Of a stretch of DNA of 64,000 nucleotides, positions 1 to 14,824 are shown piece by piece. Where the stretch lies: positions 129,844 to 193,843 of the forward strand of contig DATEZQ010000003.1 in the NCBI GenBank assembly GCA_035583355.1, in the 5' to 3' direction. This DNA comes from Minisyncoccota bacterium. Its GTDB lineage: Bacteria; Patescibacteriota; Minisyncoccia; Phycocordibacterales; UBA6899. A model generated the notes under the pieces. It was given only the letters and a program-made list of their open reading frames with translations. It had not been told where the DNA came from and made no database searches. The stretch's first letter is position 1. Each line of letters begins with the position of its first letter. A program made the position numbers and the translations under genes.

Positions 1-185
1 TGTCTATAAAAATTCCCACACGCTGGCTACAATGTTTGATAACAGTCATACAAATAGTTACAAATGAACATTATGAATACAGGAATATTTTATCACGCAA
101 TGTTTCCTCATTGCAGCTTTATCTGAGTGCATTTATGTGGGGAAAAATGACAGTATATGTAAGCTACTTTTATGTGTGTTTGAAA

Positions 186-215
186 TAAAAAAATTACTCG
201 CGCGGGGCGAGCAAT
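186..215 (-). terminator. rho-independent terminator downstream of rpsO
   Basis: Hairpin ctcgcgcggggcgag, followed on the minus strand by a U-run. Confidence 0.6.
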
Positions 216-224
216 TCTTTTTAA

Positions 225-485
225 TTATAGACCAATCTGCTTCAACACGGTGTTGTATACAGCCTCGTTCTTCTTCTTAAGATACTTAAGGTGTGTACGG
301 CGGTCTGCAACCATCTTAAGAAGACCACGACGTGAGTGGTTGTCCTTCTTATTCTCCTTGAGGTGTGCAGCGAGCTCATTGATGCGCTGGCTGAGGATGG
401 TCACCTGAACTTCTGGTGATCCAGTATCTGTTGCGTGGCGCTGGCTCTTCGTGATGATGACCTGCTTCTTCTTTGCGGTTAACAT
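225..485 (-). CDS. rpsO: 30S ribosomal protein S15
   Basis: 86 aa starting MLTAKKKQVIITKSQRHATDTGSPEVQV...LKENKKDNHSRRGLLKMV..., typical of S15. The ATG is at 483-485 on the minus strand. Confidence 0.9.
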   Translation of the reverse strand: MLTAKKKQVIITKSQRHATDTGSPEVQVTILSQRINELAAHLKENKKDNHSRRGLLKMVADRRTHLKYLKKKNEAVYNTVLKQIGL

Positions 486-595
486 GGGAAGGAGTATAGC
501 ATAAAAATTCAGAATATGCAAGCCCGTGGCTGTAGTTATAGTTATTTGACCCTCCCCTCTCTTGGAGTAGCGGGTGGGGGTACACTGCGCACCTA

Positions 596-626
596 AAACA
601 AAGAATCACCACGAGGGGTGATTCTT
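596..626 (-). terminator. terminator hairpin
   Basis: aagaatcacc-acgag-gggtgattctt, followed by a U-rich tract on the minus strand. Confidence 0.5.
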
Positions 627-629
627 GTG

Positions 630-845
630 CTATGTTCCTGGCGCCTTTTCATTCAAAAATTGCTCGAGGAGGTGGTCTCTTGGAGAATCTGCGGGTAGGA
701 ATTCGATTCCCTCCCCCATTTCTGCAAGTTCCTTGTTGATGTCATCGATAGTGACCGGAACACGATGGGTATCAGGATTGAATTTCCCTAGTCCGTGTAT
801 GACGATGTGATCAGGAACTTTTACTTTTTGTACCTGTGGTGGCAT
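630..845 (-). CDS. hypothetical protein (71 aa)
   Basis: ORF in the same frame as the upstream 98-aa ORF. The two are separated only by TAA plus one codon, which indicates translational coupling. I recognise no family. Confidence 0.4.
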   Translation of the reverse strand: MPPQVQKVKVPDHIVIHGLGKFNPDTHRVPVTIDDINKELAEMGEGIEFLPADSPRDHLLEQFLNEKAPGT

Positions 846-848
846 AAA

Positions 849-1145
849 TTATTCCATTGGCATATCACGCAGATAGTCATCGAGTGGAATGTTCCACTTA
901 CCGAAAAAAATGTCTGCAGAATGGGGATCGAGTTCATGGGGGAGGTCATTCGTAAAGCCTGCCAGTGCCTCAAAGTCTGCATCAAGTGTACCCTCGGTTG
1001 CAGTAAAAGCATCAGCCTCTATCGCGCTGCGCATCTCCTTTGCATCAGCAGTCTCTTCTGTGCAGGCCCCAGCATCTGCTGCGCCCACTTCACCATTGAA
1101 TTTCTCCATCATCTTGAGCATATTATAGCACGATTTGAAATCCAT
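849..1145 (-). CDS. hypothetical acidic protein (98 aa)
   Basis: ORF with acidic composition. It sits upstream of rpsO on the same strand. Confidence 0.4.
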   Translation of the reverse strand: MDFKSCYNMLKMMEKFNGEVGAADAGACTEETADAKEMRSAIEADAFTATEGTLDADFEALAGFTNDLPHELDPHSADIFFGKWNIPLDDYLRDMPME

Positions 1146-1186
1146 TTCGAAATTTATCCCCCAAAGAAGTTTGCTATAATGTGTAT

Positions 1187-2125
1187 ATGCAAATTACTGA
1201 CTGGATGCGACGATTCCTGGAATATACCGAAATAGAGCGTGGCCGCAGTCTGAATACGGTGCGCAATTATGAGCACTATCTCTCTACATTCATTGAGCAG
1301 TCGGGTGTAAAGACTCCTGAAGATATTACGAGTGAAAAGGTACGTGAGTTTCGTATGTGGCTTAATCGTAAGATGGTTGGCGTTGGGAAACGAGGTGTCG
1401 CAGCGACGCCGATGAAACGACGCACGCAGAACTATTACTTAATTGCATTGCGTGCAATGCTCAAGTATTTGGTGCGACAGGGCGTGCAAAGTCTCCCTCC
1501 AGAACAAATTGAATTAGCAAAAGTGCCACAAAGGCAGCTTGATCTTATTGGTCAAAATGATCTCAATAATCTTCTTGATGCCCCCGAAGGAGATAGTCTT
1601 GCTGCGCTACGCGATAAAGCAATTCTTGAAATGCTCTTTTCGACAGGGCTTCGTGTTTCTGAGCTCGTTGGGCTCGATAGGGATATTGATATGTCGCAAG
1701 AACATTTCTCGGTGCGCGGAAAGGGAGAGAAGGTACGCATCGTATTCATTTCTGATGACGCGCGTGATAGCGTAAGGGACTATCTTGCGAAAAGGACAGA
1801 TGTTGATCCTGCGATGTTTATTGCTATCGGACGTGGTGGGGAAAAGTCTTTGAGTAAGAAAGAAGGGTCATTGCGCATGTCTGCGCGTTCGATCGAGCGT
1901 ACCGTAAAGCAGTACGCGATTAAGTCAGGCATCACGAAGAAAGTCACGCCACACGTGTTGCGTCACTCCTTTGCTACAGACTTGCTGGAAAACGGAGCGG
2001 ACATTCGTTCCGTGCAGGCGCTTCTCGGACATTCGAGCATCACAACGACGCAGATCTATACACACGTGACCGATAGAGGTCTTCAGGAAATTCATAAACA
2101 ATTTCACGGGAAGCGAAGAAAATAA
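1187..2125 (+). CDS. tyrosine recombinase, XerC/XerD family
   Basis: C-terminal catalytic region HVLRHSFATDLLENGADIRSVQALLGHSSITTTQIYTHV. TATAAT at 1175-1180 lies 6 nt upstream of ATG 1187, a leaderless arrangement. The ORF track starts at GTG 1181. Confidence 0.85.
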   Translation: MQITDWMRRFLEYTEIERGRSLNTVRNYEHYLSTFIEQSGVKTPEDITSEKVREFRMWLNRKMVGVGKRGVAATPMKRRTQNYYLIALRAMLKYLVRQGVQSLPPEQIELAKVPQRQLDLIGQNDLNNLLDAPEGDSLAALRDKAILEMLFSTGLRVSELVGLDRDIDMSQEHFSVRGKGEKVRIVFISDDARDSVRDYLAKRTDVDPAMFIAIGRGGEKSLSKKEGSLRMSARSIERTVKQYAIKSGITKKVTPHVLRHSFATDLLENGADIRSVQALLGHSSITTTQIYTHVTDRGLQEIHKQFHGKRRK

Positions 2126-2288
2126 AACAGATTGTGAAACATCCGCGCCAGGGCGCGGATGTTTCATTACACCTTAACTGTGAAACATAAAAGAGTGCTT
2201 AGTGGACGAAATGGGCGATATGAGTTATCGCGTATATTTCACTTCATCCTACATTCCATATTTGTGAAACTCTTGCTATCATTATTTC

Positions 2289-3074
2289 ATGAAACTTATT
2301 TCGTGGAACGTGAACGGATTGCGCGCATCCATCAAGAAAGGATTTCTTGAATGGTTACACGCACAAGACGCTGATATTGTGGGCTTACAAGAGATTAAAG
2401 CAGAAGAGTCACAGCTCCCTGAAGAAGTGCTCAGACCTCATGGAGCAAAAGGACAATGGCATGCATACTTCTCTCCTTCACGAACAAAGAAGGGGTATTC
2501 CGGCGTAGCTATGTTCTGCAAGGAGGTCCCCGATCGTGTCGACTATGGTATGGGTATTCCTCGCTTCGATGATGAAGGACGTTACATTGCTGTACACTTT
2601 AAGGACATCGTCATTATTAATTGCTACTTCCCAAATGGTGGTGGTGGCCCCGATCGTTTGTCCTATAAGTATGACTTTTATGATGCATTTCTTTTGCATA
2701 TTAATGCACACAGATCTGAGGGAAAGAAGATTATATTCATGGGTGACGTGAATACTGCACATAATGAAATCGACCTCGCACGGCCAAAGGCGAATGAACA
2801 GAACACGGGATTTCTTCCTGACGAACGTGCGTGGATAGACAATGTTGTAAATTCAGGATATGTAGACACATTTCGCCACCTCCACCCAGTCCTCACTGAT
2901 GCATATAGTTATTGGGATATGAAAACTGCAGCACGTGAGCGCAATGTTGGTTGGCGCATCGACTATTTCTTTATCAGCAATGACTTACTCCGCAGGCTTG
3001 TGGGTGCAGGAATCAGTAGTGAAGTCTACGGCTCCGATCACTGCCCTATTTGGGTTGAGCTGAAAGATAAATAA
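2289..3074 (+). CDS. xth: exodeoxyribonuclease III (AP endonuclease, ExoIII/APE1 family)
   Basis: MKLISWNVNGLRA...LQE...GDVNTAHNEIDL...SDHCPIW motifs. Confidence 0.9.
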   Translation: MKLISWNVNGLRASIKKGFLEWLHAQDADIVGLQEIKAEESQLPEEVLRPHGAKGQWHAYFSPSRTKKGYSGVAMFCKEVPDRVDYGMGIPRFDDEGRYIAVHFKDIVIINCYFPNGGGGPDRLSYKYDFYDAFLLHINAHRSEGKKIIFMGDVNTAHNEIDLARPKANEQNTGFLPDERAWIDNVVNSGYVDTFRHLHPVLTDAYSYWDMKTAARERNVGWRIDYFFISNDLLRRLVGAGISSEVYGSDHCPIWVELKDK

Positions 3075-3101
3075 AACACCAACACGCTGTGTTGGTTTTT
3101 T
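3075..3101 (+). terminator. rho-independent terminator of xth
   Basis: aacaccaacacgctgtgttggttttt hairpin plus T-run. A second hairpin lies at 3114-3144. Confidence 0.7.
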
Positions 3102-3156
3102 GTATAAAAATAGACCGCCACGACACCCGAAGGTGTGTGGCGGTAGACGATAGGTA

Positions 3157-3888
3157 CTAGCGGATTCCCTGACGGGCTTCCAGTGCGATGAGCGCAGCGT
3201 ATTCCTCGAGAGAGGAAAGGTTGCGACTGCCGAGCGCGAAGGCGATCTCCATCGAGAGGCTATCGCGCTTCTTTTTCAGATCGGCGGTGATGGTGCGCTC
3301 ACCTTGCGGGTCGGCCTCGATGCTCTCATCCAAGAGATGCATCATGTGACTGATTGCGAGGACTCCCGCTTCCTGATGCTGTGGGATCATCTTGATGCCG
3401 TTGTGCTCGCCCCGAAGGACGTTCGCGACCGGGATCCAGATGGGCGCACGCATTTCGGAAGCCTCGAGTCGCGTGGCGCAGGGCTGCGCGGAACTCTTGA
3501 GGAGTCCCACGAAGTATCCCTTGATCTTGCGATCGGGGCCGACGTGGTGCGTCAGGTTGATGCGCTCGAGGAGAGCGAAGCAGCCGTCCTTGCCCTCTTG
3601 AGTGTCATAGCCGGTCTCGGCCATGAACTCGCGACGAGCGACGCGTTCGAGGGTGAGTGCGTCCGCCTCCTCGGTGGTGATGGTCGCCGACTTGGTGACG
3701 ACATCGACATCTTCGCAGCAACCGCCGAAGAACTTCATGCGGGACTGCTCCTCAGGCCTCTGGGGAATGCGCTCACCGCCGAGGAGGCAGGTCAGGTCTT
3801 CGTTGAAGCACTGGGTGAATGCGGCGCCGATCCGAGGATGGCTATTCGCATACAGGCGGTCTTTGTTCAACTGCTGGGGGTGGACCAC
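3157..3888 (-). CDS. hypothetical protein in a GC-rich patch
   Basis: 243-aa ORF. Local GC is about 60 percent against about 45 percent background. It contains FFGGCCED and shows no recognised family. The opposite-strand ORF 3304-3924 was judged spurious. Confidence 0.5.
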   Translation of the reverse strand: MVHPQQLNKDRLYANSHPRIGAAFTQCFNEDLTCLLGGERIPQRPEEQSRMKFFGGCCEDVDVVTKSATITTEEADALTLERVARREFMAETGYDTQEGKDGCFALLERINLTHHVGPDRKIKGYFVGLLKSSAQPCATRLEASEMRAPIWIPVANVLRGEHNGIKMIPQHQEAGVLAISHMMHLLDESIEADPQGERTITADLKKKRDSLSMEIAFALGSRNLSSLEEYAALIALEARQGIR

Positions 3889-4039
3889 GGGGGCCTCCTT
3901 GTAAGAAAGAACTCAGTCAGGTGACTGGTGCTCATATAATAGCATAGATTATCATATTTGTCTAGGCGTTGCTATGACAAAAAATGTGTGGTAGTTTCAT
4001 TGCAGTTATGGCAATATTGCCAATGTTCAGGAGGAAAAC

Positions 4040-4696
4040 ATGTTCACTCTTCTGCGTAGATTTTTCTATTCGAGCGCTCTCCTCGGCCTTCTTATTGGCC
4101 TCCCCCTCACCGCCCAAGAACACCGCTTGCACGCCGGTGTCTCCCTTTCCTGGGCGATTCCCTCCGGTGCGTTCGGTGGCAGTGACGGGTCTCGTGATTC
4201 GTACTACGATTACGGCCGCAGTCGTGTTCCTGGTTTCGCATCGACGGTGGGAGGCAGCGTCTTCATTGGCGTTCCTCTTGCCGAGCGCGTAGTGATTCGG
4301 CCGAATGCGAGCTATTTCCGCTTCCGTGGCGACGAGGGAGATCACTTCGGCTATCGTGCTACGCCGATGTCTCTCGAGATGTCGAGTGTCGGTTGCGATA
4401 TCCAGATCTTTTTCAGTCAGTCATGGAGGCAGTCACGCGGATATGTCCTCTTGGGTGTCGCTTACGATTCTGAGAAGCTTGCCATTGGCGGTAGGGCCTA
4501 TACAGACAGTGCGCCTGATCAGTACAAGGTCAAACGCAGTGCGGCGAATATCGCCTTTGGAAGGGTTTCGCGGATGGAAGGCGTCGGGGTATTCTACGAG
4601 GTAGGCTTCCATCGGACGCTTTCTGACGACATGCCTGCGGGGCTAGAGATGCCAGGCTCTGATTTCTGGAAGCTCGGCATTGGCGTTACGTTCTAA
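4040..4696 (+). CDS. putative 8-stranded outer-membrane beta-barrel protein (OmpA/OmpW-like fold)
   Basis: AGGAGG RBS. N-terminal signal peptide MFTLLRRFFYSSALLGLLIGLPLTAQE. Eight amphipathic beta-strand segments with alternating hydrophobic residues. Ends in the typical C-terminal ...GIGVTF (Phe). GC-rich. Confidence 0.55.
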   Translation: MFTLLRRFFYSSALLGLLIGLPLTAQEHRLHAGVSLSWAIPSGAFGGSDGSRDSYYDYGRSRVPGFASTVGGSVFIGVPLAERVVIRPNASYFRFRGDEGDHFGYRATPMSLEMSSVGCDIQIFFSQSWRQSRGYVLLGVAYDSEKLAIGGRAYTDSAPDQYKVKRSAANIAFGRVSRMEGVGVFYEVGFHRTLSDDMPAGLEMPGSDFWKLGIGVTF

Positions 4697-4700
4697 AATC

Positions 4701-4724
4701 AACCACCCTTCGGGGTGGTTTTTC
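4701..4724 (+). terminator. rho-independent terminator
   Basis: aaccaccc-ttcg-gggtggtt plus tttt. Confidence 0.7.
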
Positions 4725-5078
4725 TTGCGAGTGGTTGTGGTGTGTGTTAGATATAGAGCAGATTGTGAGTGGGAGGAAAACTTGCGAGAAGCAATAGCAA
4801 TTTTCGTAAATATATTTTGTTTTTGCTACTGTACAGCGCTTGCTTGTGGTAGTTTCGATTACTCGATTCCGAGAATCGATACACGCGGTTCTGCGCTTTC
4901 GCTACACCTTGGGCAATTTTGTTTGCATTCGAGTTCGACTCGCACATTTTCTTCTGGGTTAGTTTTTCGCGAAAGCACATCATTCGTGAATACTCCTCCC
5001 AAGCAGTATGACTTTACTTTTAAGTGCAGTGGTAATCACGCTAGTGCCCAAGCGCATGTGCACCCTTGTGTGTGTATC

Positions 5079-5411
5079 ATGTCTAAGAAATTTCGCATCA
5101 CTTTTGCACACGATTCCTTTGCCTATTTTCCGTCATCGCGAAAGCACTTCGGCACTTATGTCATTGCAGGTGCTCGTGCAGAGTCCTTTCTTCACAATGC
5201 GCAATTTCGGACTGCTCAAATTTCGCTCACCGCAGATTTTCCCTTCACATTGAATGCGGTGAATGTTGGTATGGGGCACAGCATCAGTGTGAAACATAAT
5301 AAATATTTTGGGGAAGTTGCTGTGTTGCGAATGGCGGTGCGCGATGTACTCCTTGGGGAGAGCATCGAACATGTGCACGGTGTACGATTTTCTTTCGGAA
5401 TAATATTTTAG
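5079..5411 (+). CDS. hypothetical small protein, weak call
   Basis: ATG at 5079 inside the long ORF 4680-5411. The N-terminal two thirds of that ORF look non-protein-like (Cys-rich, low complexity). The C-terminal part has alternating hydrophobic residues and ends in ...FGIIF. No RBS. Confidence 0.2.
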   Translation: MSKKFRITFAHDSFAYFPSSRKHFGTYVIAGARAESFLHNAQFRTAQISLTADFPFTLNAVNVGMGHSISVKHNKYFGEVAVLRMAVRDVLLGESIEHVHGVRFSFGIIF

Positions 5412-5446
5412 CCGTCCTGTGAGGCGGCTTTTCTCTAATTAAAAAA

Positions 5447-5468
5447 CGAGGGGGCTTCCCCTCGTTTT
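5447..5468. terminator. bidirectional terminator hairpin
   Basis: A-run, then cgagggggcttcccctcg, then T-run. Confidence 0.6.
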
Positions 5469-5478
5469 GGATTCGCAA

Positions 5479-6030
5479 TTATTTGTAGCGCAAAGAGATG
5501 TAACGATCGAACCAAATTGCAGATACCTTTGTATCGGGCTCTGCATTTTTATATTCGATTGCCGCTTCGCTGAAGTCGGTGCAGGCCTCTGCTCGGAGCA
5601 ATGCATCTTTCTCCTGCAGTTCAGTAAGGCGACGATGCCAAATCGTTGAGGTGGGGTCAGTCTTCTCGGTCGACTTCCAGCCGCTCACGGCGACATCAAT
5701 GTTTTCGCATGCGAGGATTTCGTCCCGCAAGGACGGATTCGTAAGATCGAGGTAACGATTTGCCCAGATGTATTCGGTTTTGGTATCACGCTCTGCATTA
5801 TCCCAGCGCTCCTTTGCTACCTGCCGACTCCGACAGGCGTCAGCGCGTAGGAGTACTTGTTCAAGTGTTATTTTCTCTTTGCAGGCCTTCCATATTTCGA
5901 TTTCCGCAGGGTGAACTGCTTTTTCGAGAAACTGCATTGCGATCACTAGTGCGGTGCAGCGATCGGCTCGCGCCTGGATGATCACACGTGTGCTTTCGGG
6001 TATGGTATACATGAGTGCTCCTTTGTGCAA
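5479..6030 (-). CDS. hypothetical protein with internal repeats of about 45 aa
   Basis: 183 aa. Repeated segments LLRADACRSRQVAKERWDNAERDTKTEYIWANRYLDL and LLRAEACTDFSEAAIEYKNAEPDTKVSAIWFDRYISL. Confidence 0.5.
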   Translation of the reverse strand: MHKGALMYTIPESTRVIIQARADRCTALVIAMQFLEKAVHPAEIEIWKACKEKITLEQVLLRADACRSRQVAKERWDNAERDTKTEYIWANRYLDLTNPSLRDEILACENIDVAVSGWKSTEKTDPTSTIWHRRLTELQEKDALLRAEACTDFSEAAIEYKNAEPDTKVSAIWFDRYISLRYK

Positions 6031-6160
6031 CTGTGAATATTATACTATGTATTACATGGTTAGTCTAGTAACTATAATGTTATATATTAACGATGAGGAC
6101 TGGATATAATTTGAGCAGAGCAAAATAAAAATACACATAATATGTGTATTTTTATTTTGC

Positions 6161-7669
6161 TTATTTCACACGGTATTTGTTGCGAATTTCCTTCACTTCT
6201 TTTTCTTCCTCACTTGCGCGAGTACGCTTCCCTTCTTCGCCTTTCGCAAGAAGTACCTCTTGAGGAAGCATCGCGAATTCTTTTGCGGTTCGCTCGAGCC
6301 ATTCGGTTGTATTGCGCTCGGGGTCCTCAAGCACCTCATCAAAGAGTGCATTGAGGATGGCACCAATGCGCGGACCTGCAGGTTCATCGATGGTCTCCAT
6401 GATTTTTGCACCATCAATCTTTAGCATCTTCACTGATACTGGCGCGCGCATCGCTTCTTCAATCATCGAGTGATATTTGCGCAAGCGATACGGTGTCTCC
6501 ATTGGACGTCCAGTTCCTATACGATCACATGCGCGCACATTCATAAGGTCCCAGACTAATTCAGGTCCGACATTCGCAACAATGCGACGCACTGCGGAGA
6601 GTGTGATCGTCTCTATATCAGAGAAGAACATGTGATAGCGCACGAGTTGTGTGGACTTGAAAATGATTTCGCGAGAATATCGAAGGCGCTCAAGAATTTT
6701 CTTCGCCATCTTTGCGCCGATTACTTCATGTCCATAGAATGTCCACGTCTTTTTCTCCTCTGACCACCTGCGTGATGCAGGTTTGCCAACATCATGAAGT
6801 AATGATCCGAGTCGAACATGAAGTGGCCAAGAGCGATCGGCTGCATGTTGAAGGGCTCGAAGATTGTGCTCCCATACGTCATAGATGTGGATTCCCTTCT
6901 GTTCGCACCCTAGCCCCTCGATAAGCTCAGGGCAAACATAGGTGAGTAAACCCACACGATGGAGGACAAGAATGCCTTCCATTGGTTTCGCACTCATGAG
7001 CATTTTTGAAAATTCGTCACGCACACGTTCCATGGCTATCTTCTCGACAAGCGGAGCGTGAGAAATTACTGCTTCAAGAGTTTTCTCCTCGATAGTGAAA
7101 TCAAGTTGTGCGACGAAACGCACCGCACGCATGACGCGAAGTGCATCCTCAGTGAAACGCAAGTGTGGATCACCCACAGCGCGGATGGTGCGCTTTTTGA
7201 TATCGCTTACTCCGTCGTAAGGATCGATGAGCTCATCACGGACGACATTATATGCGATAGCGTTCATAGTAAAGTCGCGACGCTGCAGATCCTCATAAAG
7301 GCTCTTTGAAAATTGCACGCTGTCAGGGCGGCGAAAATCGCTATATGTAGATTCTGTTCGATAGGGTGTTATCTCAACAATGCGCAACGTTGCACGTTCG
7401 GTATCATTCTCTGGGATTGTTTCATTTACTACTCCGACAGTGCCAAAATCATTCTCATAGAATGTATGGGGAAAAAGTTCGATAATCTCAGCAGGCGTGG
7501 CATTCGTGGTAAAGTCCCAATCTTTCGGAGTCTTTCCCTCGAGGAGATCTCGGGTGCAACCACCGACGAGATAAGCTTCGTAGCCTGCGGATTCAAGAGT
7601 GGAAGCAACGGATGAGATTTCGGGTGGGATATTTAGTAGGGGCATAGTTGTGTGTTGCACGTTAAACAA
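6161..7669 (-). CDS. cca: CCA-adding tRNA nucleotidyltransferase / poly(A) polymerase family with HD domain
   Basis: Class II nucleotidyltransferase N-terminus LVGGCTRDLL and a later HDVGK HD motif. Consistent with tRNA genes here lacking an encoded CCA. Confidence 0.8.
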   Translation of the reverse strand: MFNVQHTTMPLLNIPPEISSVASTLESAGYEAYLVGGCTRDLLEGKTPKDWDFTTNATPAEIIELFPHTFYENDFGTVGVVNETIPENDTERATLRIVEITPYRTESTYSDFRRPDSVQFSKSLYEDLQRRDFTMNAIAYNVVRDELIDPYDGVSDIKKRTIRAVGDPHLRFTEDALRVMRAVRFVAQLDFTIEEKTLEAVISHAPLVEKIAMERVRDEFSKMLMSAKPMEGILVLHRVGLLTYVCPELIEGLGCEQKGIHIYDVWEHNLRALQHAADRSWPLHVRLGSLLHDVGKPASRRWSEEKKTWTFYGHEVIGAKMAKKILERLRYSREIIFKSTQLVRYHMFFSDIETITLSAVRRIVANVGPELVWDLMNVRACDRIGTGRPMETPYRLRKYHSMIEEAMRAPVSVKMLKIDGAKIMETIDEPAGPRIGAILNALFDEVLEDPERNTTEWLERTAKEFAMLPQEVLLAKGEEGKRTRASEEEKEVKEIRNKYRVK

Positions 7670-7678
7670 GAAAAAAGC

Positions 7679-7714
7679 GTTTCACGTGGAACTAGTCTAA
7701 TTATATAGACTAGT
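7679..7714. promoter_or_regulatory. palindromic operator-like sites in the cca promoter
   Basis: GTTTCACGTGGAAC at 7679-7692. A perfect 9-6-9 inverted repeat ACTAGTCTA-attata-TAGACTAGT at 7691-7714 lies immediately upstream of the cca start, which is on the minus strand. Confidence 0.4.
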
Positions 7715-7821
7715 GATTAATTTGGTAGGTATCAAGATGCCAGAACTCGCCCCTTCGTCACATCCATATTTCATTTCGCTGTGCTCATGAAATATGGTGT
7801 GCGAGTAGGGCCAGGGCTCGG

Positions 7822-7964
7822 TTGCCCAGGACTCGACACCACTCACAAAGTAATTTAGGAGCAAAGCACCTAAATTACTAAGTGGTGGTCGTCACGGCTC
7901 GGCGACCCTGCGCTGCGCTTCGCGCGAGCGAGGGTGCCCGCCTCCGCCTTTCGAGTCCGGCGGG
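7822..7964. repeat. tRNA-3'-end-mimic element D, downstream of tRNA-Arg
   Basis: Degenerate direct copy of the tRNA-Arg 3' end at 7822-7840 (ttgcccaggactcgacacc). GC-rich hairpin core. Inverted copy of the tRNA 3' end at 7950-7964 (ttcgagtccggcggg). A terminator hairpin at 7981-8007 separates it from the tRNA. Confidence 0.6.
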
Positions 7965-8014
7965 ATCTCGAAAAATTGCGGCGAATAATGCTTCGCATTA
8001 TTCTTGCATTTTTG

Positions 8015-8086
8015 TGCCCCCGCCAGGACTCGAACCTGGGATAACGGTTTCGAAGACCGTTGTGATATCCACTTCACTACAAGGGC
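8015..8086 (-). tRNA. tRNA-Arg (anticodon UCG)
   Basis: Manual cloverleaf: acceptor GCCCUUG/CGGGGGC, anticodon arm ACGGU-CUUCGAA-ACCGU, T-arm CCAGG-UUCGAGU-CCUGG, discriminator A. No encoded CCA. Confidence 0.8.
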
Positions 8087-8238
8087 ATTAATTGTTTAAA
8101 ATACTCTAACCTGGGAAAAGCAAGGCGCTCCGCGCACCAGGCTTGCTTGCCCGATAAGGAGCCGCCACCGCGGCACTGATCAACTCACGCCTTCGCTCTG
8201 CTCAGTCGCTCACGGGTAACGGATTTCTTGACTGTCCC

Positions 8239-8284
8239 GATATCCGCTTCACAACAAGGGCATTAATTGTTTTTTCGAATACTC
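8239..8284. repeat. partial copy of the tRNA-Arg 5' half plus its upstream flank
   Basis: gatatccgcttcacaacaagggcattaattgttttttcgaatactc is about 85 percent identical to 8064-8106, which is the tRNA 5' part plus flank. Confidence 0.65.
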
Positions 8285-8405
8285 AAATTCTTGAAAACTT
8301 GACTGCAAAAACTATGCTCAAAAACGAGCGTAGACACAATATACGTTAAAATGGCTCACTTGCCAAATATTTTAAAATCGGTTAATATACCTCTACAACA
8401 AAAGG

Positions 8406-8476
8406 CGCGGGTATGGTTTAGTGGTAGAATGCGTCCTTGCCAAGGACGAGACGGGAGTTCGATTCTCCCTACCCGC
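8406..8476 (+). tRNA. tRNA-Gly (anticodon GCC)
   Basis: GCGGGUA acceptor, anticodon arm CGUCC-UUGCCAA-GGACG, T-arm GGGAG-UUCGAUU-CUCCC, discriminator A. No CCA. Confidence 0.85.
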
Positions 8477-8484
8477 ACAGCACA

Positions 8485-8707
8485 GAAAAAACAGAGCAAA
8501 GCTCTGTTTTTTCTTTTGTGCTTGCGGGTAGGGAGAATCGAACGGAGAGGGGTCGGGAGAGGAAGCCTCTCCCGTCTAGGAGAGCAGGAGTTTCTTGTTT
8601 CACAAGAAACCCCGTCGAGAACCGTGGGTTCTCGAAGAACTTTGCCGTGCGGGCCCCTTTAGGGTGCGCGAGCAAAGTTCGTGAGATCTCTCCCCTCCCT
8701 ACCCAGG
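8485..8707. repeat. tRNA-3'-end-mimic element A, downstream of tRNA-Gly(GCC)
   Basis: Terminator hairpin at 8491-8505 with flanking A and T runs. Perfect 20/20 inverted copy of the tRNA 3' end at 8523-8542. Hairpins cgagaaccgtgggttctcg and gtgcgggcccctttagggtgcgc. Degenerate direct copy of the tRNA 3' end at 8677-8707. The core is about 75 percent identical to element B in the opposite orientation. Confidence 0.7.
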
Positions 8708-8750
8708 CAAAGCCTGGCTAGGGAGTCCCTGATGTTCCTGGGTTTGTTCA

Positions 8751-9353
8751 GTTGTCCTTTATCCCCACTCTCCACAGCCTTATACACAGACAAAGTGTGG
8801 AAAAACTCACTCAGCTCGTATCCTTCAATGAATTTTTGTTGCTATTGAGCCACTTCACAAAGGACACTGTGGACAACCCTGTGGATAGCGGGGATAACTA
8901 TCATGCAAATGTGGAGTTCGATAGAAGTTTTCCCTAATTTCCGGAAATTTGGCTGTTCCCACCATTACTCAATTGTCTGCCCCCTGCCTCCTCCGATTTG
9001 GCCCATGTCTCTTTGATTTGCCATAGCTCCTTGATCTTATGTGCCTATACACATCATATGCCTAGGTGGTGGGGAAAACTCTGTGGATAGTGGGGATAAA
9101 GGACAAATTAGGGTATTTCCTCACGGAATTGCGATTCCTGGGGCTTTATGCTACAGTAGCGCACCTCTGAGTTCTCAGACAATGTGTGGAAAAATGGAGC
9201 AGCATCCTCGCTATTCCATAGAAATCTTATATTTTAGCCGATATTTTGCCTGTATCTGGGGATAACCCTGTGGATAGTGGGGATAAAGGACATTGATTAT
9301 CTTTGAATTCCTCAATGCACAGTCTTTGCTATTGATATACATAGTTATCCACA
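8751..9353. other. candidate chromosomal replication origin (DnaA-box cluster plus AT-rich region)
   Basis: Four copies, one inverted, of a 26-bp repeat of the form ctgtggatagYggggataaaggacaa at 8751-8779, 8877-8900, 9081-9106 and 9258-9295. TGTGGATAG is 8/9 of the DnaA box TGTGGATAA. Extra TGTGGAAAA boxes. A perfect TTATCCACA at 9345-9353 followed by aatataatttatatttaaaa. Confidence 0.5.
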
Positions 9354-9391
9354 TAATGAATATAATTTATATTTAAAACCGCGAAATACAT

Positions 9392-10445
9392 GTTTCACGG
9401 GAAACAAATTGATATATAATGGGTATATGGATCACAGGATGAGTAATACCGAGGTTGGCACTATGGGTGAAACACTTGCAGTCCGCTATCTCAAATCAAA
9501 GGGATTCTCCATTCTCGCGAAAAACTTTAATATCCCTGGTGTTGGCGAGATCGACATTATCGCTCACTGTGACGGCACTTTTCATTTTGTCGAGGTGAAA
9601 TCCTCATATTCCTTCTCGCTAAACAGTGAATATCACTCTTCTCGTAACTTTGATGATGCGAAAAAGCAACGTATTGCACGAGTTATGCGGAAATACTGTG
9701 ATTTGTATAAGATCGATAGCCCTCGAACTGTAAGCCTCTGCGTTATTTCCTTTTCACGTGAAACATATGATGCTCGCGTATTTTTTGACCCTTTTGTACT
9801 GGTTGACACTATTTGATTTCACGTGAAACGTTGGGACTTGGTTTCATACGAGTGTAATAATATATATTAATTTGGTATTCGAGCTCTGTATTTTCAGCCG
9901 GATTATTGCGCCTGCACGTTTCCCTACTGAAATAGACATTGCTCACCAGGAATCGCTGCAAAATCTGTATGTGGGTCATTACGTAACATGCCATACCCCT
10001 TCCGCTGTGTACTTGAGTATTCTGCATATAATCCAGTTTTCACGTGAAACAAATTGGATATGTGATATCCATAAACAGCCAGACGTTCATGTTCCAGCAA
10101 TGTGTTACGTAGGAACATTATGGTTTCATGTGGAACATGTGATTCTTGGTATTTTGTATTTGATCACTAAGAATGTGTAATAATTACAATTCATGAATAC
10201 CTATTCAGAAGCATATTGTAGCAAATGACCGTTGCGAAGTGTTCAGTACTGTTTCACGTGGAACAGGACATGTCGATCAATGCAATAGCTAAGCTGACCG
10301 TGATCATTGGTCTATGTAGTGCTATGGCTGCTCAGGTATGCATGGATTCTTATATGGCAATTGATATTCTGAATATTTTCTGGAGAACTGCGTGGTTGCA
10401 GAAAGTGATATTGCTGCAAGTTGGTCATTATGTTTCGCGTGAAAC
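9392..10445. repeat. array of 7 copies of the 14-bp palindrome GTTTCACGTGRAAC
   Basis: Copies at 9392-9405, 9751-9764, 9815-9829, 10036-10050, 10123-10136, 10251-10264 and 10432-10445. 9817-10620 is AT-rich with no convincing ORF. Confidence 0.7.
9409..9816 (+). CDS. YraN/UPF0102-family endonuclease-like protein
   Basis: GETLAVRYLKSKGFSILAKNFNIPGVGEIDIIAH...FVEVK. The true start is probably at an internal Met (9439 or 9463). Confidence 0.7.
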   Translation: MIYNGYMDHRMSNTEVGTMGETLAVRYLKSKGFSILAKNFNIPGVGEIDIIAHCDGTFHFVEVKSSYSFSLNSEYHSSRNFDDAKKQRIARVMRKYCDLYKIDSPRTVSLCVISFSRETYDARVFFDPFVLVDTI

Positions 10446-10624
10446 AGAAAATAGGCAATATTCATATGCATTGTTGAGTTACTACGTAACCATTGTAAAC
10501 ATAATTATTATTGTCTGAAAATATTCTTTGTACTATATTTTTCATTATCATTTTATAATAGGCGTAAGCAATAAAGTCTTATGTCCTTTATTTCCACTGC
10601 TGAAATTTTTGTGGTATAATGTAA

Positions 10625-10969
10625 GTGTCTTATAGGGAACTTGTTCCAATTATGTCACATCATCCATTACTCATTGTCAAGGCACGTCATGTAGTTCGCC
10701 ATTCGCATCTTAGTGATGAGGATAAGCAGCTCATGTTTGAGCGCATTCCATATCTTGATCTTGGAATGCTCGCTCTTTTCATTGAGTCTGCTGAAGAGAA
10801 TCCATTTGCACTTGATGCAATTGTGAGTAGTATGAAAAAGAAGCTTGATGCTCGAGGTAATCTCCACCGTTTACATGAGATCCTCGAGAATGAAGAAAAG
10901 GAAATCGCTGACGAGGAAGGAGATGAGACACTTCCGGGTGTTGAATTGAATAATAGCGCAGCAATCTAG
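10625..10969 (+). CDS. hypothetical protein
   Basis: ORF preceded by TGTGGTATAAT, an extended -10. Probable start at MSHHPLL. No family recognised. Confidence 0.4.
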   Translation: MSYRELVPIMSHHPLLIVKARHVVRHSHLSDEDKQLMFERIPYLDLGMLALFIESAEENPFALDAIVSSMKKKLDARGNLHRLHEILENEEKEIADEEGDETLPGVELNNSAAI

Positions 10970-10980
10970 CGAATATCTAT

Positions 10981-12000
10981 ATGAAAGAGCATTTAAACAA
11001 TCCAGAAGAGGAAATGTTTGCAGCATATGGTGAAGACCTTGGCGAGGCTCCACAAGGGGAGTCTGTTGAGGCTGAGCAGCAGTCTGCGGGAGAGGTCCTT
11101 GAGGATTCTCCTATTTCTGACGCTGATCGATATGCAGAGCAGGTGCTCGCGGGCCATTCTCCCGAAGAGAGGGCTGCTGTGGAGAGTATAGTTTCCTCTA
11201 TTGAGAACGTGTACGCAAAGGTAAGTTCTGATGACGTCTTGACCCGAGAAAAAGCTACGGAGGCTTTGCTGGGAACTGCGTTTGCAGCTGCACCAACCAC
11301 AGCCATGGGGCATGAGCAGGAACCATTGTGGAAGAAGGTTCTTACAGGGGCTTCACGGGGTGCCCACGGTGCAGTGAAGGCTCTGGCACTTACTGCAACT
11401 CTTGCAGCTCCTGCTGCAGCACAGGATTACAAGCATCCTAGCCCTGAGATTACTAAAAAAGTTGATTATATATTTGGATCGAGCATTATGGAGCGATTTG
11501 GTGATAGGCGTGGTCACTATAAGAAAGCCTATACAAATCTTGAGGTGCGAAAGAAATTTCTCATCCAGCAGCTTCATGATTTAACTGATGCTCGTCCAAG
11601 AAATACTGCAGAGGAGACTCATATTTTGCGTGTTGAGGCTGATCGTGATGCGAAGCTCGCAGCCCTCCGTGTCGAGCGTACGCTTGAAACTATGTCATTT
11701 GAGAGTCTGCATTCAAATAATCCTGTAGATAAGGCACAGTATGAGGCGAATATTGCCTCGATTGCTGCAAGAGAGGCTAGGGCAATAGAGGAGTGTGAGG
11801 CACAGCTGCTTGCAGAGCATCGTAAGGCGGTTCCAGTAAAGGAGGTTGAAGACTTGCGAAGAGAAATCATTCGAATTGAGAAGAGTGAGGATGAGATTGT
11901 CCAAAGATTCCTCGCGACCCGAAATAACTCGTATAGTTACGGCTCAAGCTGGGGGTTTGGTGGTGGAAGAAACTGGACGCAGTGGGATGGGTATAAATAA
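10981..12000 (+). CDS. hypothetical acidic, coiled-coil-rich protein
   Basis: 339-aa ORF, no family recognised. The ORFs overlapping it on the opposite strand were judged spurious. Confidence 0.5.
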   Translation: MKEHLNNPEEEMFAAYGEDLGEAPQGESVEAEQQSAGEVLEDSPISDADRYAEQVLAGHSPEERAAVESIVSSIENVYAKVSSDDVLTREKATEALLGTAFAAAPTTAMGHEQEPLWKKVLTGASRGAHGAVKALALTATLAAPAAAQDYKHPSPEITKKVDYIFGSSIMERFGDRRGHYKKAYTNLEVRKKFLIQQLHDLTDARPRNTAEETHILRVEADRDAKLAALRVERTLETMSFESLHSNNPVDKAQYEANIASIAAREARAIEECEAQLLAEHRKAVPVKEVEDLRREIIRIEKSEDEIVQRFLATRNNSYSYGSSWGFGGGRNWTQWDGYK

Positions 12001-13460: not shown

Positions 13461-14102
13461 ATGTCCAAATTTGCTACACAAGAATTACGAAAAAAATATG
13501 CGGGGCAGACGCTTCTGAAACTCAAGAAGCTTTTTCCGAATGCGCGCATGTTTTTGAATTACGAAACACCATTTGAGTTACTTGTTGCGGTGATGCTTTC
13601 TGCGCAGTGTACAGATAAAAAAGTGAATGAAGTTACACCAGCTCTATTTGAAAAATACAAAACAGTTGATGACTATGCGAGAGCATCCATTAAGGATCTC
13701 GAGCGACTTGTATACCAAACAGGGTTTTATCATGCCAAGGCAAAGCATATCAAAGAGGCGGCCAAGGTCGTGCGTGATGAGTTCAAGGGACAGCTCCCTC
13801 GCACAATGAAAGACATGTTGCGGATTCCTGGAGTGGGGAGAAAGACTGCGAACGTGGTGCTTGGAAATATATATGGAGTAAGCGAGGGGATTGCTGTTGA
13901 TACGCATGTGCGTCGACTGTCGTATGTACTCGGTTTTTCAAAGGAAAAAGCAATTCCTGCAATCGAGCGGGATCTTATGAGGCTCTTTCCTCGAAAGGAG
14001 TGGTTTCGCCTTACCTATTATCTTATAGAGTATGGGAGACTGTATTGTCCCGCAAAAAAGCATGACCATAGTATGTGCCCACTTGGCCATATCGATGGAT
14101 AA
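13461..14102 (+). CDS. nth: endonuclease III (HhH-GPD DNA glycosylase)
   Basis: LLVAVMLSAQCTDKKVN...IPGVGRKTANVVL...VDTHVRRL, plus a C-terminal Cys cluster. Confidence 0.85.
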   Translation: MSKFATQELRKKYAGQTLLKLKKLFPNARMFLNYETPFELLVAVMLSAQCTDKKVNEVTPALFEKYKTVDDYARASIKDLERLVYQTGFYHAKAKHIKEAAKVVRDEFKGQLPRTMKDMLRIPGVGRKTANVVLGNIYGVSEGIAVDTHVRRLSYVLGFSKEKAIPAIERDLMRLFPRKEWFRLTYYLIEYGRLYCPAKKHDHSMCPLGHIDG

Positions 14103-14383
14103 GCATTGCTTGAACTCCACCTTGCAGTTAATTTGCATTTGCAAATAAGTATCGTTAAACAGTTTCGCTCCTGTGCCGCTTGTGTAACATGTTAATTTAA
14201 CTATCGAATTGCTACATATTGTGCCGTGTAACACATGTAATTACGTAGCAGAGAGTGAAAAGTGCACTTTTGTGTGCTGTGAAACACCTTTCTGAGGTTA
14301 GGGTGCATTTGAGCCATGTTTCACATTACGCAGAAGAATTTCCCTTACACGCATAATAAAAACGCGACATAGTCGCGTTTTGT

Positions 14384-14824
14384 TCACTTAGCATATTCAG
14401 GTGACATGGTCGATGGACGAGGGGTAATCATGTCGCCCTTACGGTCTAGGATTGATTTGAAGATTTCAGTAATAGTGAAACCAAGATGTACGACAAGCAC
14501 AATGATGAGCTGAGATTCTGGGTGTGTGTAGATGTAATTCAGCTGTGCGCAGTGCGGGCAGCGCAAGGAGCAGGTTTGGGGTTCGGAGGGGTGCCATCGC
14601 CCTCTTGTCGAAGTTGGAAGGGGGCCACTGTAGAAGTGGTCTTGGACGAAGTCTGCAGAGCCCAGTGTGAAACATTGGGAGCACTGCACGCAGTGCACGG
14701 TGCACTCCTTTGCGATAGCAAGTTTTTGGGAATGAAGATTCGACCTCATCTCCTGAGGCGTGTCACCTGATGCGGTGGTAATCCTTAGAATGCGATTGAG
14801 TGTATCGGTCACGAGAGACTCCAA
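14384..14824 (-). CDS. hypothetical Cys-rich protein, possible zinc ribbon
   Basis: CVQCSQC and CPHC motifs. Start uncertain. Confidence 0.3.
   Translation of the reverse strand: MESLVTDTLNRILRITTASGDTPQEMRSNLHSQKLAIAKECTVHCVQCSQCFTLGSADFVQDHFYSGPLPTSTRGRWHPSEPQTCSLRCPHCAQLNYIYTHPESQLIIVLVVHLGFTITEIFKSILDRKGDMITPRPSTMSPEYAK

Follow-up and report, generated by a model that had tools for sequence, protein, structure and literature searches.

A probable chromosomal centromere of clustered parS sites beside a candidate replication origin in a Paceibacteria bacterium

The parS sites of Bacillus subtilis, at which the partition protein ParB (Spo0J) loads, are spread over hundreds of kb. Dense origin-proximal parS clusters occur in Corynebacterium glutamicum and Streptomyces coelicolor and likewise in Caulobacter and Myxococcus, spanning several kb to tens or hundreds of kb; they lie near the parAB operon, and the presence of many copies together presumably lends robustness to ParB loading and to the recruitment of SMC. 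The centromeres of plasmids and prophages (F sopC, P1 parS, type Ib/II iteron centromeres) also repeat the sites of a partition protein in a short non-coding stretch, with sequences specific to each element and usually in tandem at regular spacing, and the Noc-binding sites of Firmicutes (NBS, ATTTCCCGGGAAAT) are a related 14-bp palindrome with a CCCGGG core, read by a ParB paralogue and scattered chromosome-wide. The chromosomal target of ParB, parS, is the conserved palindrome TGTTNCACGTGAAACA, present in 3–21 copies per chromosome, almost all of them in the origin (ori) domain, and its mycobacterial version is listed as GTTTCACGTGAAAC (PMC7022226). B. subtilis has 10 parS sites, eight of them in the ori domain (PMC7022226), and C. 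glutamicum and S. coelicolor have 10 and 21, respectively (Table 1 of PMC7022226). The locus described here lies in a 64-kb stretch of contig DATEZQ010000003.1 (hereafter the window) from a Paceibacteria bacterium of the Candidate Phyla Radiation (CPR), in which about nine parS sites straddle a candidate oriC. With a probability of roughly 0.87, this array is a chromosomal centromere on which ParB is loaded. Direct observation established what the motif is, that it is locally enriched and adjacent to the DnaA boxes, and that relatives have conserved the array.

A repeat finder assigned eight 14-mers of the window to a single family (7679, 9392, 9751, 9816, 10037, 10123, 10251 and 10432), which follow each other at irregular distances of 1713, 359, 65, 221, 86, 128 and 181 bp. 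The initial annotation of this DNA had listed the last seven as an array and the copy at 7679, upstream of cca, as a further one; all were recovered, two of the seven being off by one base, and its generic reading of a dense binding array for a dimeric DNA-binding protein beside the candidate origin holds. Its 14-bp consensus GTTTCACGTGRAAC was exact at 7679 and 10251, while the other copies were 86–93% identical to it, and the proposed CACGTG core was intact in four of the seven array copies but altered at 9392 (CACGGG), 10123 (CATGTG) and 10432 (CGCGTG). A partition element had been one of its four hedged options, although the 14-mer was not recognised as the core of parS. Indeed, as 16-mers the copies match the chromosomal parS consensus over all 16 positions, and the one at 10250–10265 is perfect.

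The window was scanned for 16-mers scored against TGTTNCACGTGNAACA, with the chance level taken from shuffles. One site had no mismatch (10250), three had one (7653, 9391 and 10431), four had two (7678, 9750, 10036 and 10122) and two had three (8596 and 9815), whereby 7653 (one mismatch) and 8596 (three mismatches) were additions to the sites listed earlier. Eight sites with ≤2 mismatches were observed versus 0.27 in shuffles, and all eight fell inside 7653–10446 (2.8 kb), as did the four with ≤1 mismatch, for which the shuffles gave 0. The other 61 kb contained no 16-mer with ≤2 mismatches and just three more 3-mismatch matches. The 12-mer core, with ≤2 mismatches allowed, had 16 matches versus 3.95 expected, 9 of the 16 inside 7655–10444. 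The motif is, in other words, strongly enriched locally, in excess of what composition predicts.

The enriched region surrounds the candidate oriC. As had been proposed, a cluster of DnaA boxes adjoins the array: 12 of the 25 boxes in the window (≤1 mismatch to TTATCCACA) are inside 8759–9353. The cluster (8752–9353) includes four copies, one of them inverted, of a 36–43 nt composite unit TGGGGATAACCCTGTGGATAGTGGGGATAAAGGACA with three boxes each (8752–9292), and it is directly followed by an AT trough (GC 0.29) at 9300–9450. Every parS-like site with ≤2 mismatches lies within 1.1 kb of the 12-box cluster, with sites on both sides. A lone partial DnaA-box unit (TGTCCTTTATTTCCACT, 10582–10598) is situated at the far end of the parS-bearing spacer that follows yraN, overlapping the promoter of the next operon.

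With the parS/ParB (Spo0J) system of B. subtilis and most bacteria, the array shares the same 16-bp palindrome, here with one perfect copy, as well as multiple degenerate copies which are origin-adjacent and partly located within genes. Unlike in B. subtilis, about nine sites are packed within 2.8 kb directly around the DnaA boxes, and no parAB stands beside the origin, either in the window or up to ±10 kb of cca in 80 relatives. Many parS copies in one origin-proximal cluster are also a feature of C. glutamicum and S. coelicolor; the present cluster differs in lacking a nearby parAB operon, in its density of ~3 sites per kb, in the tRNA genes, oriC boxes and yraN that are interspersed among its sites, and in belonging to a CPR lineage. 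In contrast to the centromeres of plasmids and prophages, its motif is the universal chromosomal parS and its sites are irregularly spaced (25–795 bp), with no tandem repeat detected by Tandem Repeats Finder. An iteron or tandem centromere and a CRISPR-type array were both rejected, as no direct repeats at regular spacing were present; the irregular spacing had already been taken to speak against CRISPR. The CACGGG of site 9391, the only copy with CGGG, is halfway toward the NBS core. Most copies have a CACGTG core, and Noc-binding sites were rejected because the sites cluster at the origin instead of being scattered and phmmer detected no ParB/Noc homologue in the window and 82 loci of relatives.

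Four same-family relatives (L083, L086, L088 and L090), found via a 339-aa protein encoded downstream of the array, all keep the array. They share with the window a common layout of cca, tRNAs, DnaA boxes, yraN and an AT-rich spacer with palindromes, and in each of them yraN is followed by a 0.5–0.94 kb AT-rich spacer with 4–7 palindromes and then by the window's two downstream genes. In L083, whose CCA enzyme is 87% and other housekeeping proteins 83–95% identical to those of the window, two parS sites 25 bp apart are located upstream of cca in a 93%-identical block, a CACAAG variant follows tRNA-Gly, the orthologous DnaA cluster has 12 boxes, one site lies at the 5′ end of the called yraN open reading frame (ORF) and one in the yraN 3′ end, and four sites occupy the 506-bp spacer. 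The spacers of L086, L088 and L090 are 848, 590 and 938 bp long, with 7, 4 and 7 sites, respectively. Between the spacer of the window and those of the relatives, similarity is detectable only at the palindromes and at the promoter of the next gene. Since the number of sites is conserved and the sequence between them is randomised, the motif itself is probably under selection, and this conservation amid turnover is the strongest evidence for such selection in the analysis.

The array zone is also recognisable at larger distances, where the CCA enzyme of the window has ≤62% identity to those of species representatives of Yonathbacteria and other Parcubacteria. A set of 80 distant Parcubacteria/Paceibacteria loci was oriented on cca and covered up to ±10 kb around it. 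Sites resembling parS (≤2 mismatches) reached 0.3–0.8 per locus per 500 bp from about −2 kb to +1 kb of the cca start, were sparser on either side of this interval, as far as −3 kb and +1.5 kb, and had a background of ~0.02 per kb elsewhere, a contrast of ~36-fold. DnaA boxes in these loci peak where the parS-like sites peak. Moreover, the GC skew changes from negative to positive across this point in 12 of the 29 relatives with long flanks on both sides, with the opposite switch in none of the 29. Closer relatives keep the order cca, tRNA-Arg, tRNA-Gly, boxes/parS, yraN, tRNA-Pro, and yraN is found upstream of cca in 47 relatives' loci. Overall, three of the four testable features of parS were found, namely the match to the 16-bp consensus, the concentration in the origin domain (within the 64 kb, and as a common peak with DnaA boxes in relatives), and the retention of sites by selection, as it appears, while the flanks diverge (L083, L086, L088 and L090).

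Several observations weigh against the centromere assignment. No ParB or ParA was identified in the window among nearly all ORFs of ≥120 aa searched with Pfam, motif scans of the window for these proteins gave nothing convincing, and a phmmer search of 6,876 six-frame ORFs from the window and the 82 loci, in which the queries were Spo0J and Soj of B. subtilis, returned nothing at E ≤ 1, even though the Spo0J query was 100% identical to the real protein. Both proteins were also absent from 1.2 Mb around the arrays of relatives. A cognate ParB gene, if present, is not origin-proximal here, unlike in most model bacteria. Degenerate copies predominate in the array, with CACGTG missing from three of the seven initially listed copies, and because most copies are degenerate, the affinities of individual sites may be low. 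Near the cca of L003 (Yonathbacteria), the closest relative in the genome collection, there are just four sites, each with three mismatches. Finally, the GC skew keeps its sign across the site in the window (+0.07 on the left and +0.05 on the right of the candidate origin) and in L083 alike, so that the oriC assignment at this locus is based on the DnaA boxes.

As parAB was found neither in the window nor in the loci of relatives, it is probably not origin-proximal in the clade. We nevertheless infer that a ParB is encoded in the genome, because dozens of genomes of the clade preserve exactly this 16-bp specificity, some of them with as many as 13 perfect copies, and because no reader of the sequence other than ParB is known. 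The matches of Spo0J in a database search were all Bacillus proteins, which is uninformative on a ParB of Paceibacteria. Literature searches on parS or ParB in Patescibacteria, Parcubacteria, Saccharibacteria and Paceibacteria yielded nothing relevant.

The way the array may work can be drawn from established ParABS biology, whereby ParB as its reader and all the steps that follow are inferred by analogy. The helix-turn-helix domains of a chromosomal (Spo0J-type) ParB would let its dimers recognise each 16-bp palindrome; on binding CTP, the dimers would close as clamps and move by sliding to the flanking DNA. With many closely spaced loading sites, a single large ParB–DNA complex could form over the ~3-kb cca–oriC–yraN region, and weak and strong sites acting jointly would make the loading robust. 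Such a complex would mark newly replicated origins for segregation (via ParA, if present) and/or load the SMC condensin. As a side effect, it may dampen the overlapped promoters of cca, yraN and the downstream genes.

A different reader would be required if the palindromes were operators for a dimeric protein that is specific to the lineage and is not ParB, either a transcription factor or a nucleoid protein, for instance a CACGTG-binding regulator of cca, yraN and the downstream operon. Sites 7653 and 7678 at cca and 9391 at yraN do overlap promoter regions, site 10431 lies ~160 bp before a promoter-like site, and no ParB was found nearby. However, the match covers all 16 parS positions, including the outer TGTT/AACA beyond the CACGTG core, many copies are within coding sequences, and the two conserved downstream proteins show no match to a DNA-binding family or fold. 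Nor did the sites spread in the manner of a regulon: a motif at the promoters of dispersed genes was seen neither in the other 61 kb of the window nor in ~0.86 Mb of relatives' flanks (background ~0.02 per kb), and the regulator with a regulon that the initial annotation had suggested is not supported. Operators of this kind are accordingly regarded as very improbable.

It is about as improbable that short palindromic repeats, selfish or neutral and similar to repetitive extragenic palindromes (REP), miniature inverted-repeat transposable elements (MITE) or Rickettsia palindromic elements (RPE), gave rise to the copies by local proliferation, without a centromere function. The perfect copies of some relatives, which lie in genes as short inserts that keep the frame, in each of the three reading frames, would fit such repeats, and so would the ~48-bp palindromic flanks in L061, which resemble units of insertion or duplication. 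Against this stand the confinement of the copies to the origin zone, a self-similarity of the window that ends at the 16–27 nt motif with no internal duplications of the spacer beyond it, the identity of the motif with universal parS instead of a lineage-specific repeat, and the persistence of the arrays at one locus across deep divergence with randomised flanks. A main role in replication control at oriC rather than in segregation, by sequestration or by ParA/Soj–DnaA regulation, is likewise improbable. The sites flank the DnaA-box cluster on both sides, the lone DnaA-box unit at 10582–10598 closes the array, and control of DnaA by ParB–Soj is known in B. subtilis (PMC7022226). Yet this would be a downstream role of the same ParB–parS complex and not a different identity of the sites, no ParA/Soj was found in the window or the 82 loci, and GC skew does not confirm the oriC in the window.

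Beyond the centromere assignment itself, a more far-reaching arrangement is possible but rather doubtful: the Paceibacteria centromere would be fused with oriC, its parS copies would be continually made and lost and, in some lineages, written into genes, and ParAB, if present, would be located far from the origin. The inserts would then be short palindromes in all three frames of a Wzy_C-like gene, cca and yraN, the 0.8-kb spacer of the window would serve as a non-coding "parS nursery", and parS would behave partly like a domesticated spreading repeat.

The copies inside genes of relatives are observations in their own right. In three distant Parcubacteria (L070:7863-9680, L066:6693-8453 and L061:7721-9673, all on the minus strand), 8–13 perfect parS copies TGTTCCACGTGGAACA, flanked by AAAT/ATTT, are embedded within one gene for a ~600-aa Wzy_C/O-antigen-ligase-like membrane protein, which is situated directly upstream of tRNA-Ala, tRNA-Arg and cca. 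Translated in all three frames, the copies give the short inserts (K/M)(L/M)FHVEQ, (N/K)CSTWN and (I/N)VPRGT, and part of the copies in L061 have common palindromic flanks of ~48 bp. This pattern points to selection at the DNA level, or to insertion, on top of the coding sequence. About 90 parS-like sites were located within cca itself in the relatives L005–L082, at offsets between +5 and +1472 relative to the match start; the frame encoding V-[ST]-[RH]-[EV]-T accounts for 72 of 91. Recurrent codon offsets are ~11, ~212–330, ~900–990 and ~1250, the second of which corresponds to a variable insert with two to three copies per gene. The cca of the window has no such sites.

For an uncultured, ultra-small CPR bacterium, the array supplies a sequence-level landmark of the probable origin and centromere, and it would imply that a canonical ParB–parS system is at work in these reduced genomes. 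The conserved synteny of cca, tRNA-Arg, tRNA-Gly, DnaA boxes and yraN with parS is a marker that can help to orient Paceibacteria genomes and to close them. As a textbook element in a little-studied lineage, the array leaves the understanding of partition systems unchanged; the more unusual material is found in relatives, with 8–13 perfect parS copies read in three frames of one membrane-protein gene and parAB absent near the origin.

Individually, the sites begin at one edge of the centromere/origin zone, formed by the 5′ end of cca (CCA-adding enzyme; 6161–7669, minus strand; Pfam PolyA_pol, PolyA_pol_RNAbd and HD). The site TGTTGCACGTTAAACA (7653–7668) has one mismatch to TGTTNCACGTGNAACA and lies 8 bp upstream of the cca ATG at 7645; its counterpart in L083 is a perfect parS, and the 25-bp gap to the neighbouring site is kept. 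This neighbour, CGTTTCACGTGGAACT (7678–7693, two mismatches), belongs to the upstream region of cca and is conserved in L083. Directly after the pair, a perfect hairpin palindrome ACTAGTCTAATTATATAGACTAGT (7691–7714) is nearly identical in L083, with one base of the 5′ arm differing, in a surrounding block that is 93% conserved. The weak variant TGTTTCACAAGAAACC (8596–8611, three mismatches) is part of a small hairpin, and its membership in the array is uncertain. Its CACAAG-core form, TGTTTCACAAGAAAC(C/A/G), occurs after tRNA-Gly both in the window and in L083 (8112), and directly upstream of cca in L004 (9166); a weak parS is one possibility, and an element of an RNA or a terminator is another.

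On the other side of the DnaA boxes, TGTTTCACGGGAAACA (9391–9406, one mismatch) is located directly upstream of yraN and has counterparts in L083, L086 and L090. The site CTTTTCACGTGAAACA (9750–9765, two mismatches) lies within the yraN 3′ end, where it encodes F-S-R-E-T, and an in-yraN site is also present in L083, L086, L088 and L090. The next one, GATTTCACGTGAAACG (9815–9830), has a perfect 12-mer core with three outer mismatches and overlaps the yraN stop codon. It is followed by GTTTTCACGTGAAACA (10036–10051) and GGTTTCATGTGGAACA (10122–10137), with two mismatches each. The TGTTCC...GGAACA feature pointed out in the initial annotation is indeed present, at 10091–10118, and part of it is TGTTACGTAGGAACA (10104–10118), which at 15 nt is one base short and is probably a decayed parS copy; the block 10104–10136 aligns at 80–82% with parS-bearing stretches of the L083 and L088 spacers. 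The perfect parS TGTTTCACGTGGAACA (10250–10265) reads TGTTCCACGTGAAACA on the opposite strand, in agreement with the B. subtilis-type consensus, and TGTTTCGCGTGAAACA (10431–10446, one mismatch) has an identical match of 18–22 nt in the spacers of L083 and L090.

The gene yraN (9427–9816, alternative start 9409, plus strand; Pfam UPF0102 and NCBIfam) hosts one copy of the palindrome and has another overlapping its stop codon. It makes up ~40% of the 1.05-kb array stretch, so that the description of the latter as largely non-coding is only partly correct. Between the window and L083, yraN is only ~50% identical (8764–9150), in comparison with 83–95% for neighbouring housekeeping genes; judged from these identities, the parS-hosting yraN appears to evolve unusually fast.

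The spacer (9817–10651, 835 bp) carries five parS-like sites and one decayed copy, and it is AT-rich as had been noted, with GC of 0.24–0.47 in 100-nt windows. Its ORFs had no Pfam match and no homologues in relatives: the ORF at 10225–10518 matched only itself among 5.8 billion proteins, and the one at 9872–10180 only a junk tandem-repeat translation among 1.84 billion representatives. No Rfam RNA family was matched, and no tblastx or blastn match of the spacer was obtained in 1.25 Mb of relatives' DNA. As its ORFs have no homologues and no RNA family was matched, the spacer is most probably not a gene, and the conserved protein whose presence in 9817–10620 would have argued against the array was not found. 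No similarity was seen between the spacer and the Wzy_C-like gene which hosts parS in distant relatives.

A promoter-like site (TTTCCA-18-TATAAT with TG; 10591–10620, plus strand) at the end of the spacer would serve the two-gene unit 10652–12000, and is among the few parts of the spacer similar in relatives. This unit, directly downstream of the array and conserved only in same-family relatives, consists of two genes of unknown function (10652–10969 and 10981–12000). The first product has 105 aa and a four-helix model (AlphaFold from a single sequence, pLDDT 83), and is 93% identical to its L083 counterpart over 75 aa. The second has 339 aa, with an acidic variable N-terminus, a conserved hydrophobic stretch and a C-terminal coiled coil, the latter confident in a partly confident AlphaFold model; it is 100% identical to the NCBI protein VJ579_02035 of a "Candidatus Paceibacterota bacterium" metagenome-assembled genome. 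Neither product had a Pfam, NCBIfam or PHROG match, and the models had no significant PDB match. With no DNA-binding family or fold match, neither is an obvious candidate for the cognate regulator, for which the initial annotation had recommended a search nearby; neither ParB nor ParA came out of that search. An integrated element was also rejected, since the chromosomal synteny is conserved and, by comparison with L083, shows the spacer and both downstream genes to be native to the family. Further downstream are a small minus-strand MazG-like ORF, tRNA-Pro (12718) and nth (13461–14102).

Half-site pairs noted earlier outside the array do exist, the 8-mer being counted 11 times versus 2.6 expected; the TGTGAAAC half-sites are at 2133, 2179, 2263, 14278 and 14318. 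The half-parS heptamer GTTTCAC was found 18 times outside the array versus 6.9 ± 2.5 expected under a 3rd-order Markov model, with 17 of the 18 within the first 36 kb of the window (2134–2264, 14279–14667 and scattered), and GTTCCAC was not enriched outside the array. Two of the three half-sites at 2133–2186 are in or abut a terminator-like GC hairpin after an xerC-like gene, and those at 14278 and 14318 form an inside-out inverted pair. Binding of ParB at half-sites has been reported for Pseudomonas aeruginosa and other species (PMC7022226). The distant half-sites here are not members of the array.

Two further regions adjoin the origin. Within 1–6100, the stretch from 3 to 5 kb of the window is unusually GC-rich (0.52–0.57) and contains ORFs without Pfam matches; a rearrangement or an acquired segment adjoining the origin is possible. 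Between cca and the DnaA boxes are tRNA-Arg(tcg) (8014–8086, minus strand) and tRNA-Gly(gcc) (8407–8478, plus strand), both found by ARAGORN and Rfam and equivalently placed in relatives. They belong to a GC-rich, otherwise non-coding region (7740–8750) which is conserved (82% identity to L083 over 7878–8899) and contains repeats of tRNA fragments; no Rfam family was found for this fragment region, nor an intron-containing tRNA by ARAGORN with introns allowed. The segment 8214–8272 is a copy of the tRNA-Arg 5′ half (80% identity), and 8103–8119 is a copy of its T-arm. The 3′ end of tRNA-Gly has a perfect inverted copy at 8523–8543, which together with the terminator hairpin 8484–8514 yields an 87-nt palindrome at 8457–8543.

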